44,826 nucleotides of DNA from a virus (taxonomy: Duplodnaviria > Heunggongvirae > Uroviricota > Caudoviricetes): the IMG/VR virus record IMGVR_UViG_2585427971_000012. One strand, 5' to 3'. The notes under the pieces are model-generated. The model saw only the letters and a program-made list of their open reading frames with translations, had not been told where the DNA came from and did not search any database. Positions 39,173 through 40,049 of this stretch are shown here, piece by piece. Every line of letters begins with the position of its first letter. The first letter of the stretch is position 1. The translations under genes and the position numbers were made by a program.

Positions 39173-39293
39173 TACCAATTAAAAATTATCAACTGGGCAT
39201 TGTGCTCATTCAGTAAAGAACTAATTCCTATCTTTGCTCTAGGTAGTAATATTAAGCCACCGCAATAATATCTTTACCTAACGGCGTAAGAAT

Positions 39294-39320
39294 CCCGGTC
39301 ACCGTGCCGGGTTTTCTTTT
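39294..39320 (+). terminator. Candidate intrinsic terminator downstream of cI
   Basis: CCCGG(39294..39298)/CCGGG(39307..39311) stem around TCACCGTG, followed by TTTTCTTTT. Confidence 0.45.
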
Positions 39321-39436
39321 GCCCTCCCCTCATCACACACACCGTTAAAAAAACCACCATAACCTCGCTTCAGTTATCGCTATGCGATTCAAGTCACAAA
39401 ATAAATCCATCCTAAATACAACCAGTTATATCTAAA

Positions 39437-39490
39437 ACAACCAATAAAACAACTTTTGTTGTTGACGATAAAACAACTATAGTTTTAAAT
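39437..39490 (+). promoter_or_regulatory. Leftward operator/promoter (OL/pL): three operator sites overlapping a candidate sigma70 promoter
   Basis: Seen directly: ACAACCAATAAAAC (39437..39450), ACAACTTTTGTTGT (39449..39462), ACAACTATAGTTTT (39473..39486) share the ACAAC core with the OR sites; TTGACG (39462..39467), 17-nt spacer, TTAAAT (39485..39490). Confidence 0.5.
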
Positions 39491-39767
39491 AAGTTCATCG
39501 CAACAACACAACGATACGGCAACTACCTGATTCACCGTTGCGATGACCGCTTAGATCCGCAGTTTGAATTTCAGCAGGCTTCGGGGAGTGCGAGGGGTGA
39601 AACGGACGCGTGAACGTCGGTGTGACCAGCTGAAATTAACTCAACATTTCATACCTTAGTCGCTTCAACGAGGCGGCTTAGTTATGACAACCGGCGGCCA
39701 TCCACCGCCTGAATACGCGCAGAAGTCTCTATATGTTCAGCAGCCCAGCTTACGGGCAGGAGTTTTT

Positions 39768-39974
39768 ATGGTTCATCAACATTACGGAACGCAGACCGTT
39801 AATCGCGGTGCGGTCATGCCAGGAATGCTGGTCAAACACAAAGATGGTACCTGGACTGCATCAGCTAATTTACGCGGACGGCTTTATCTGCATCGCGGCA
39901 TCGAGCGCACTTATACCCGTGATTTGCTCGTGGAAGTTTTTCTCGACGGACGCGGCAACGGCCTGAATCACTAA
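39768..39974 (+). CDS. Hypothetical small protein (68 aa) between pL and gam
   Basis: ATG at 39768 preceded by GGCAGGAG; the track ORF (39684..39974) has a weaker upstream start. No arginine-rich motif, so not an N protein. Confidence 0.3.
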
Positions 39975-40049
39975 TCCCCTTTCCTGTTTACCTAATCAGC
40001 CCGGCATTTCGCAGGCGATATTTTCACAGCCATTTTCAGGAGTTCAGCC

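Follow-up and report, generated by a model that had tools for sequence, protein, structure and literature searches.

A conserved pL leader RNA as candidate put-like antiterminator in lambdoid prophages without N

The DNA analyzed here, IMG/VR virus record IMGVR_UViG_2585427971_000012 (Caudoviricetes; 44,826 nucleotides, hereafter the window), raises the question how a lambdoid phage expresses its early-left genes when the antiterminator gene N is missing. The + strand of the window corresponds to lambda's "leftward" direction, and the transcript from the predicted pL promoter begins with a 270-nt leader that contains a conserved structured RNA element of about 88 nt, here called the core (39548..39635; all features are listed in Table 1). 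Considering its place, its conservation and its exchange with put RNA in otherwise identical leaders, we propose that the core is, on balance probably, a cis-acting processive antiterminator RNA which is put-like without being homologous to put. Whether it represents a second family of RNA polymerase-binding processive antiterminator RNAs, evolutionarily unrelated to put and interchangeable with it as a module, is in our judgment evenly poised. The family described here is also present in Enterobacter-type prophages and in about 40% of complete E. coli genomes (2209 of 5426, 41%), where it has so far been unannotated and no annotated feature lies beneath it.

The N-less pL leader and its conserved core

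Neither the pL-gam interval nor the rest of the early operons contains an N-like open reading frame (ORF) according to the ORF list, PHROGs and Pfam, which bears out what the initial annotation had stated from the reading frames. The absence of N can be argued more strongly because every ORF of the early operons has another assignment, with the caveat that profile libraries detect N proteins poorly; Pfam in particular is a weak test and uninformative as a detector of N, since phi80 N itself gets no Pfam match. The distance from pL to the gam start codon (ATG at 40050) was measured as about 555 bp, in agreement with the approximately 550 bp given before, and it accommodates a kil gene that had been reported as absent. 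The order cI - (optional cargo genes) - pL - kil - gam, without N, was found in all of the closest sequenced phages, namely PhiR34_1 (99% identical over the noted region), Turner, PhiR47_2 and the Bievrevirus phages 4A7, Perceval and D2, and PhiR34_1, Turner, PhiR47_2, 4A7 and Perceval are propagated phages with this same N-less arrangement.

The predicted start of the pL transcript is at about A39497, and the promoter sits among immunity-specific operator repeats (39400..39484). Alignment of seven phages with two immunity types (alignment A1) revealed no relation between the types in the operator/promoter segment, with identity resuming exactly at TCGCAAC (39498) and continuing at 96-100% through to kil. 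Conservation thus starts at the predicted +1, whatever the immunity region or the genes downstream. Copies of the element were gathered from IMG/VR, metagenomes and species-representative genomes, and only 39542..39639 is common to all collected variants: those termed types 1-3 vary upstream of 39530, while in type 4 the entire 5' leader is that of the HK639 type. Within the window the core is present as a single copy (covariance model search R1, 132 bits). Rfam 15 gave no gathering-level match in the whole window and only chance-level matches in 37900..40200; this silence is uninformative regarding put, since Rfam 15 gives no match on the put region of HK022 either and seems to include no put family.

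The secondary structure of the core was derived with RNAalifold from 18 variants, and pairs were counted in 41 distinct variants. It comprises H0 (39548-50/39590-92), helix A (39557-59 and 39561-66 paired with 39575-80 and 39582-84) with the invariant loop AAUUUCAG (39567-74), a G-rich invariant junction GGAGUGCGAGGGGUGAA (39585-39601) containing the segment GCGAGGGG, and the hairpin P3 (39602-03 and 39605-07 paired with 39616-18 and 39620-21). A pseudoknot is possible between loop nucleotides 39569-74 and the tail 39630-35 (UUUCAG/CUGAAA); its six pairs are kept in 100% of cases, with wobble-compatible changes on each side. In the consensus structure 99% of the cells are paired, as compared to 25-39% in slid-partner controls, and the covariation score was reached by none of 500 column shuffles. 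In helix A, changes from A-U to C-G and from G-C to A-U occur together in the type-4 lineage and wobble changes (C-G/U-G and G-C/G-U) in other lineages. In P3, one pair occurs as A-U, G-U or G-C, another changes from A-U to G-C alongside a wholly different loop, and a G.G mismatch is replaced by G-C in one lineage. Single-nucleotide variants fall mostly at unpaired positions or yield wobble pairs, and the minimum free energy (MFE) fold of the isolated core is the consensus structure, at an average energy.

A long outer helix formed by AAUUUCAGCAGG and CCAGCUGAAAUU was rejected as a full helix: it is paired in 92.5% of cases with no compensatory changes, its C34-G88 pair is broken by three independent variants, and the competing helix A covaries. 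Its central 6 bp persist as the possible pseudoknot. Likewise, a put-like register for P3, suggested by a shared ACGG...CGUCGG, was discarded as the variants in loci L057 and L028 favor the other register.

The core overlaps an arginine-rich ORF of 31 codons with a TTG start (39564..39659, RLRGVRGVKRTRERR), which in some relatives is fused in frame to Kil, and a small N-like peptide might be encoded here. Its arginine-rich motif is reminiscent of those of N proteins, and a TAG to CAG change in PhiR47_2, 4A7 and Perceval accounts for a 'Kil' annotated there with 128-139 aa. However, the ORF has no Shine-Dalgarno sequence in front of its TTG start, it is interrupted by TGA after 5 codons in type-4 elements and has lost its stop in others, it carries 3 synonymous as compared to 5 non-synonymous changes, it has no family match, and there is no boxB as a target. 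With the reading frame not conserved, a mini-N was rejected and such a peptide is extremely improbable; by this pattern of substitutions, the core is not protein-coding. The TAG/CAG polymorphism at 39657..39659 sets whether the arginine-rich frame stops or runs via an upstream ORF into kil, and the 128-139-aa 'Kil' annotations (L001 3377..3763; L006 2758..3177), which are due to it, are probably an annotation artefact.

Attention had initially been drawn to a different part of the leader, a stem at the very start of the pL transcript (CATCGCAAC/GTTGCGATG). Its arms belong to a perfect 10-nt inverted repeat, TCATCGCAAC (39495..39504) and GTTGCGATGA (39537..39546), which are 100% complementary, are separated by 32 nt and can form a stem of 9-10 bp. 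The repeat itself is as described, and the conclusions drawn from it did not hold: the predicted +1 trims the first base off the 5' arm, and a local hairpin of AUCG (39497-39500) with CGAU (39512-39515), common to HK639-type leaders (CAUCGAAACGAAACAUCGA), competes with the stem. Compensatory changes were not observed among the leader variants, where the 3' arm never varies and the 5' arm is mismatched or partly or wholly replaced without compensation (L044, L106, type 4). Folding of the leader gave nothing unusual when compared with shuffled sequences (z -1.67 for the leader and +0.92 for the stem). The stem is not the main feature of the leader.

Exchange with put RNA and terminators downstream of the core

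In HK022 and HK639, put RNA acts as a protein-independent modifier of RNA polymerase via the zinc-binding domain of the beta' subunit, and its action is blocked by rpoC mutations (PMC9378689). The core resembles putL and putR of HK022 and the putL-like RNA of HK639 as a cis element close to or at the beginning of the early pL transcript in a lambdoid phage that lacks N, in its size (both are approximately 70-90 nt), in two apparent adjacent stem-loops with conserved unpaired nucleotides upstream of intrinsic terminators, and in filling the identical slot in identical leaders. By contrast, it has no detectable sequence or structure homology to put, is longer, has another junction and a possible loop-tail pseudoknot, and is present on the pL side only. 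A put covariance model built from 15 put sequences (R2) gave no match in 39400..39800 at E<=10 with filters off, its best match elsewhere scoring 10.5 bits, and the put consensus GAACGGCGCG...CGUCGG...GGCGGGYUCAGGARGARCGGCAAU does not fit the leader of the window. Conversely, the covariance model of the element found no match in 65 put-bearing or related loci. Since neither model finds the loci of the other, the element is not a member of the put family. With respect to the stem-loops, helix A and P3 have compensatory support and the closing helices have none, and the architecture differs from that of put.

The relation between both RNAs became apparent from 120 HK639-type leaders of IMG/VR that were retrieved by their shared 5' flank GAAGTTAGCCAGCGGNGAAGTGGAG. 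The same slot holds put in about 104 of these leaders and the element in 15, and beyond the slot both kinds continue with an identical 3' flank TTTACCAGCAGCTCTTTGCGAGGGGCTGACGG and share their first genes. As put and element leaders, HK639 and L354, L331 and L028, and L229 and L302 form matched pairs; L331 combines operators of the window's type with put, and the put of HK639 is annotated as antiterminator RNA in its GenBank record. This exchange is the pattern expected of alternative, functionally equivalent modules in lambdoid mosaics. The genomic context is thus in line with the N-independent, RNA-based antitermination that had been suggested with HK022 put as the example; the candidate is the core at 39548..39635, and neither the 5'-terminal stem nor a homolog of put.

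A segment located just past put in HK639-type leaders (UUUACCAGCAGCUCUUUGCGAGGGGCUGACGG) resembles the center of the element (UUUCAGCAGG...UGCGAGGGGUGAAACGG). It is found in L005 (HK639) at ~34215..34250 (- strand) and in the 3' flank of L028, L057 and L126, and lies within a 126-nt feature annotated as 'putL-like antiterminator RNA'. This resemblance may reflect a shared functional motif or a recombination remnant.

The exchange also bears on the possibility that the leader is processed to a small RNA (sRNA) acting in trans on host or phage mRNAs. DicF in the dicB operon precedes dicB, and the element likewise lies upstream of a gene for a cell-division inhibitor. Moreover, lambdoid prophages encode sRNAs in their immunity regions, e.g., svsR of NC-SV-like lambdoid prophages, a 77-nt sRNA placed at the 3' end of cI (PMC12803456); svsR was considered as identity of the leader element and rejected, as it maps to the 3' end of cI. 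The precise replacement by put argues for a function in cis, no terminator or processing signature delimits an sRNA, and no Rfam match, DicF included, was obtained, which makes this explanation very unlikely.

Alternatively, the core could be a nut-like recruitment site for a trans-acting factor, either an unrecognised phage antiterminator protein or a host factor, with the RNA alone being insufficient. Proteins of the N type are hard to recognise, the invariant G-rich junction and the loop could be protein-binding sites, and the leader occupies the place of phi80 nutL. Nevertheless, the early operons leave no ORF to be assigned to such a protein, and no candidate partner gene co-occurs with the element because the first genes after it differ among phages. 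Furthermore, the pL transcript contains no boxA at up to 2 mismatches, and put, the exchange partner, needs no protein (PMC9378689). A dependence on such a factor is, consequently, distinctly improbable.

Downstream of the core, the window shares a block from about 39647 on with phages of the N type (phi80), the put type (HK639) and the core type. It is common to phi80, HK225, KO-TP1, HK639 and 17 prophages of Enterobacter, Citrobacter and related genera (the block is also at L011 3001..3110 and in L013-L029), and contains a covarying hairpin (39658-66/39670-78), the invariant TTATGACAACCGGCGGCCATCCACCGCC and a second hairpin (39693-97/39705-09), followed by the Shine-Dalgarno sequence of kil. 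TTATGACAACCGGCGGCCATCCACCGCC holds the start of an upstream ORF (uORF; ATG 39684, MTTGGHPPP...) with a polyproline run, which in the window is in frame into kil. As third-codon positions are also invariant, constraints both at the RNA level and on coding may act on the uORF block, and it could be a translation-coupled (EF-P-sensitive) Rho attenuator ahead of kil. In phi80, HK225, KO-TP1, HK639 and related prophages, an intrinsic terminator precedes this block, which in phi80 is tL1A just after N, and the block overlaps the start of the region annotated as t-L1 signal in the phi80 record M11919; the window lacks this terminator. The segment 39498..39646 is the group-specific part that stands in for nutL-N-tL1A of phi80. 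As compared to the N-nut systems of lambda and phi80, the window shares the genome positions (the pL leader and a site after cro), a boxA at the nutR position and the sequence downstream of the leader, which is homologous to the phi80 region after tL1A, but lacks an N gene, boxB, a boxA on the pL transcript and the tL1A terminator.

Intrinsic terminators are, however, present further downstream. In the pL operon of the window, the terminator at 42470..42498 lies upstream of a DksA-like gene, xis and int and is conserved in about 120 related loci, some of the put type included. On the other strand, Q lies past the terminator at 31298..31270 and several kb of antisense cargo, which the sequenced free phages lack. 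Among type-4 loci, each of the five that extend to the shared block carries a canonical terminator (GC stem and T-run) 0.7-1.9 kb past the element, ahead of kil and the recombination genes. The element is therefore located as put is, on the nascent early transcript just past pL with terminators downstream. That no antitermination takes place at all, which had been left as an option, is unlikely because strong intrinsic terminators follow the element in the window and in relatives.

These findings bear as well on the possibility that the core is part of an ordinary regulatory or stabilising 5' untranslated region (UTR), which would protect from RNases or tune translation of kil and gam or Rho attenuation via the proline-rich uORF block without modifying RNA polymerase, leaky termination being tolerated. 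Transcripts are commonly stabilised by 5'-terminal hairpins. The window has no tL1A terminator right after the element, the folding energy is unremarkable, and the conserved uORF and hairpin block, a possible attenuator, follows directly downstream. Contrarily, the element sequence is kept ahead of unrelated first genes, and so has not been tuned to kil; what replaces it, specifically, in identical leaders already bearing the same 5' hairpin is put, an RNA that modifies the polymerase; and in the exchanged leaders it precedes strong intrinsic terminators. We regard an ordinary 5' UTR as unlikely, albeit as the least unlikely of the alternatives to an antiterminator RNA.

Several points weigh against antitermination by the core. 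The proposal rests on position and conservation, and the predicted folding energy of the core is no better than that of shuffled sequence (z +0.05). Independent covariation events are few, as the compensatory changes stem from about three (two or three) lineages, and helices H0 and HB are without covariation, being merely compatible, and are broken by a few variants. A second copy serving the pR operon was not found in the window (R1), which matters as Q lies past a strong terminator. A terminator of the tL1A type is absent from the window, where one has to go 2.9 kb downstream to reach the nearest predicted intrinsic terminator, so that a need for antitermination near pL is not evident there. 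A mechanism shared with put is only an analogy, since the element does not match put (R2). As for boxA, half of the element-carrying phages lack it, and boxA-type complexes are known to act mainly against Rho and not against intrinsic terminators. Finally, we found no description of a second put class in the literature, where an earlier mention may exist in King et al., 2011 (J Bacteriol 193:5784).

Following the preferred reading, we propose that the pL transcript starts with a modular leader whose functional center is the core, and that the core would fold on emerging from RNA polymerase and stay bound to the elongation complex. The bound complex would then resist the early-left terminators, i.e., the one at 42470..42498 and whatever termination by Rho takes place in the block that follows the element; in relatives it would also pass the tL1A-type terminator before kil, gam and bet. 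No phage protein would be needed for the action of the core, and the 5'-terminal stem would be an accessory part of the leader, as transcript-end structure or folding aid. To our knowledge, put is the only well-studied case in which a nascent RNA reprograms the bacterial RNA polymerase unaided, and it forms one sequence family. The eps-associated RNA (EAR) of Bacillus is a cis RNA reported to promote processive terminator read-through in its own operon; it is unrelated to the situation here in organism, sequence and operon, and the window has no Rfam match.

If the proposal is correct, antitermination by RNA alone would be widespread among temperate coliphages and not a curiosity of HK022, and it would explain how recombination, excision and other early-left (delayed-early) genes are expressed without N in common E. 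coli prophages, i.e., the Bievrevirus-like phages and their relatives, including prophages of O157 and O55 strains. A second, unrelated RNA would show whether RNA has more than one way of keeping the elongation complex resistant to termination, and would offer a new polymerase-RNA complex for structural biology as well as a compact, protein-free antitermination part for synthetic biology. The natural swaps of put and the element in isogenic leaders represent ready-made experimental controls.

The boxA site after the cro-like gene

On the pR transcript, a boxA-like sequence CGCTCTTTAA (38135..38126, - strand) had been noticed after the stop codon of the cro-like gene, at the position of lambda nutR. 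It is real and extends to CGCTCTTTAACAA (38135..38123, - strand), in which all 13 positions agree with the rrn boxA consensus YGCTCTTTAACAA; no other site of this kind occurs in the window, where chance would give 0.01. It also fits the boxA consensus GYTCTTTAANA with no mismatches, the critical C at position 4 included (bioRxiv 10.1101/091223). The 69-nt spacer between the cro-like and CII-like genes (38079..38147, - strand) is essentially unstructured (-3.6 kcal/mol, z -0.76), from which it follows that boxB is lacking, as stated in the initial annotation. A lambda-type nut site is therefore not present: the boxA stands at the nutR position, but in an unstructured spacer and with no N gene in the early operons. 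The sole pairing predicted in the spacer is a weak one, between the boxA core GCUCUUU and the Shine-Dalgarno region of the cII-like gene (AAAGGAGU), by which Nus binding and ribosome binding might be coupled. On the opposite strand, 38100..38126 (+) reads TTGACT - 15 nt - TATTGT with repeated TTGA/TTGC motifs and overlaps the boxA sequence; it might be a promoter of the pRE type aimed toward cro (antisense) and cI.

The distribution of boxA differs from that of the core. An identical or nearly identical boxA is present in 72 loci, all of which carry the cro/cII allele of the window, and it is absent from 74 of 146 element-bearing phages and from 93 of 95 put phages. It was therefore rejected as a general feature of N-less phages and their strategy, its occurrence being linked to one cro/cII allele. 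In two put-type phages whose Cro proteins differ, L164 (~7524) and L259 (~8328; locus minus-strand orientation), CGCTCTTTAACAA immediately follows cro. There, TGGAACCCAA and large hairpins come next, an arrangement that may constitute a distinct type of site, combining boxA with structure, on the pR transcript of phages without N.

Antitermination based on host factors, the other mechanism suggested initially, is plausible here since the site is a perfect consensus, with the reservation that it is confined largely to one cro/cII allele. Through the boxA, host NusB/NusE are most likely brought to the transcript, accompanied by NusA, NusG and SuhB, and this probable loading of Nus factors would either protect the operon from Rho or modulate translation of the cII-like gene as at suhB. 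Host Nus recruitment with one of these outcomes is the most economical reading of the site. In reporter constructs, rrn boxA can protect against Rho. Besides its match to the rrn consensus, the site shares with the complexes of the rrn/suhB type (NusB, NusE, NusA and NusG, along with SuhB) a start codon less than 50 nt downstream, a spacing also seen at the putative regulatory boxA sites reported previously (bioRxiv 10.1101/091223); with its fit to GYTCTTTAANA and its position 44 nt before the cII-like ATG, it also has the characteristics of regulatory boxA sites such as that of suhB. In contrast to these, it belongs to a pR operon of a phage and neither boxB nor boxC flanks it; the window's boxA is confined to one cro/cII allele plus two other contexts. 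The boxA-only site poses the separate question whether N-less phages co-opt the rrn-type Nus complex of the host directly.

Neighboring features and cargo genes

The features of the early and late regions are given in Table 1.

Table 1. Features of the window discussed in the text, ordered from the pL side to the late region.
Feature	Coordinates	Strand	Basis and remarks
CI-like (S24/LexA-type) repressor	38484..39172	+	ORF list (longest ORF start 38417); cI annotation in PhiR34_1, 99% identical
Intrinsic terminator ending the cI (pRM) transcript	39294..39321	+	Terminator scan; CCCGGTCACCGTGCCGGG + TTTTCTTTTG
Predicted pL promoter	-35 TTGACG 39462..39467; -10 TTAAAT 39485..39490	+	Sequence inspection; 17-nt spacer
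5'-terminal stem, 32-nt loop	39496..39545	+	Inverted repeat; in leader MFE fold
Conserved structured RNA element (core), ~88 nt	39548..39635	+	RNAalifold, pair counts; single copy by covariance model R1
Block common to N-type (phi80), put-type (HK639) and core-type phages	39647..39760	+	Alignment A2
kil (FtsZ inhibitor; P22/phi80-type Kil), 68 aa	39768..39974	+	PHROG 294, E 1.3e-37; Kil annotation in relatives
gam	40050..40346	+	ORF; annotations of relatives
bet	40352..41137	+	ORF; annotations of relatives
exo	41134..41814	+	ORF; annotations of relatives
Small genes of the exo-xis region		+	Followed by xis
Intrinsic terminator in pL operon	42470..42498	+	Scan; -10.2 kcal/mol, z -2.86, then UUUUUUAUU
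xis	43458..43694	+	
int	43684..window end	+	
cro-like repressor (YdaS-like helix-turn-helix), 76 aa	38148..38378	-	PHROG 35; stop 38148..38150
Consensus boxA CGCUCUUUAACAA on pR transcript	38123..38135	-	12 nt past cro stop, 44 nt before cII-like ATG
CII-like activator, 179 aa	37539..38078	-	PHROG 163, E 6e-67; overlaps O start
O	37542..36523	-	
P	36526..35825	-	
Strong intrinsic terminator after the inverse-autotransporter gene	31270..31298	-	Scan; -18.1 kcal/mol; between P and Q on the pR-transcribed strand
NinB, HNH endonuclease, RusA		-	Followed by Q
Q-like late antiterminator	25152..25841	-	PHROG 304, E 2.6e-107; late genes beyond Q
pR'-like promoter	25168..25140	-	After Q
tR'-like terminators	25084..25058; 24970..24954	-	After Q; terminator scan

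Between P and the nin/Q region, the window carries a gene for an inverse autotransporter of 1421 aa (31310..35575, - strand) belonging to the intimin/invasin family (IAT_beta, Big_1, Invasin_D3), which has three near-identical repeats of ~100 aa and its own strong terminator. It is adjoined by an element of the insertion sequence (IS) family IS66 (28639..31055, +) and an esterase gene (27690..28568, +). In the closest free phages that have been sequenced, neither the inverse autotransporter nor the IS element is present; the coverage of 26000..38000 by these phages is only 30-41%.

Cargo of another kind was observed in relatives between cI and pL (L001 1648..3076; L003 1660..3076), annotated as a pair of GevT toxin and GevA antitoxin along with an ASCH-domain protein. 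It is absent from the window, and the slot between the cI terminator and oL is a hot spot of insertion.

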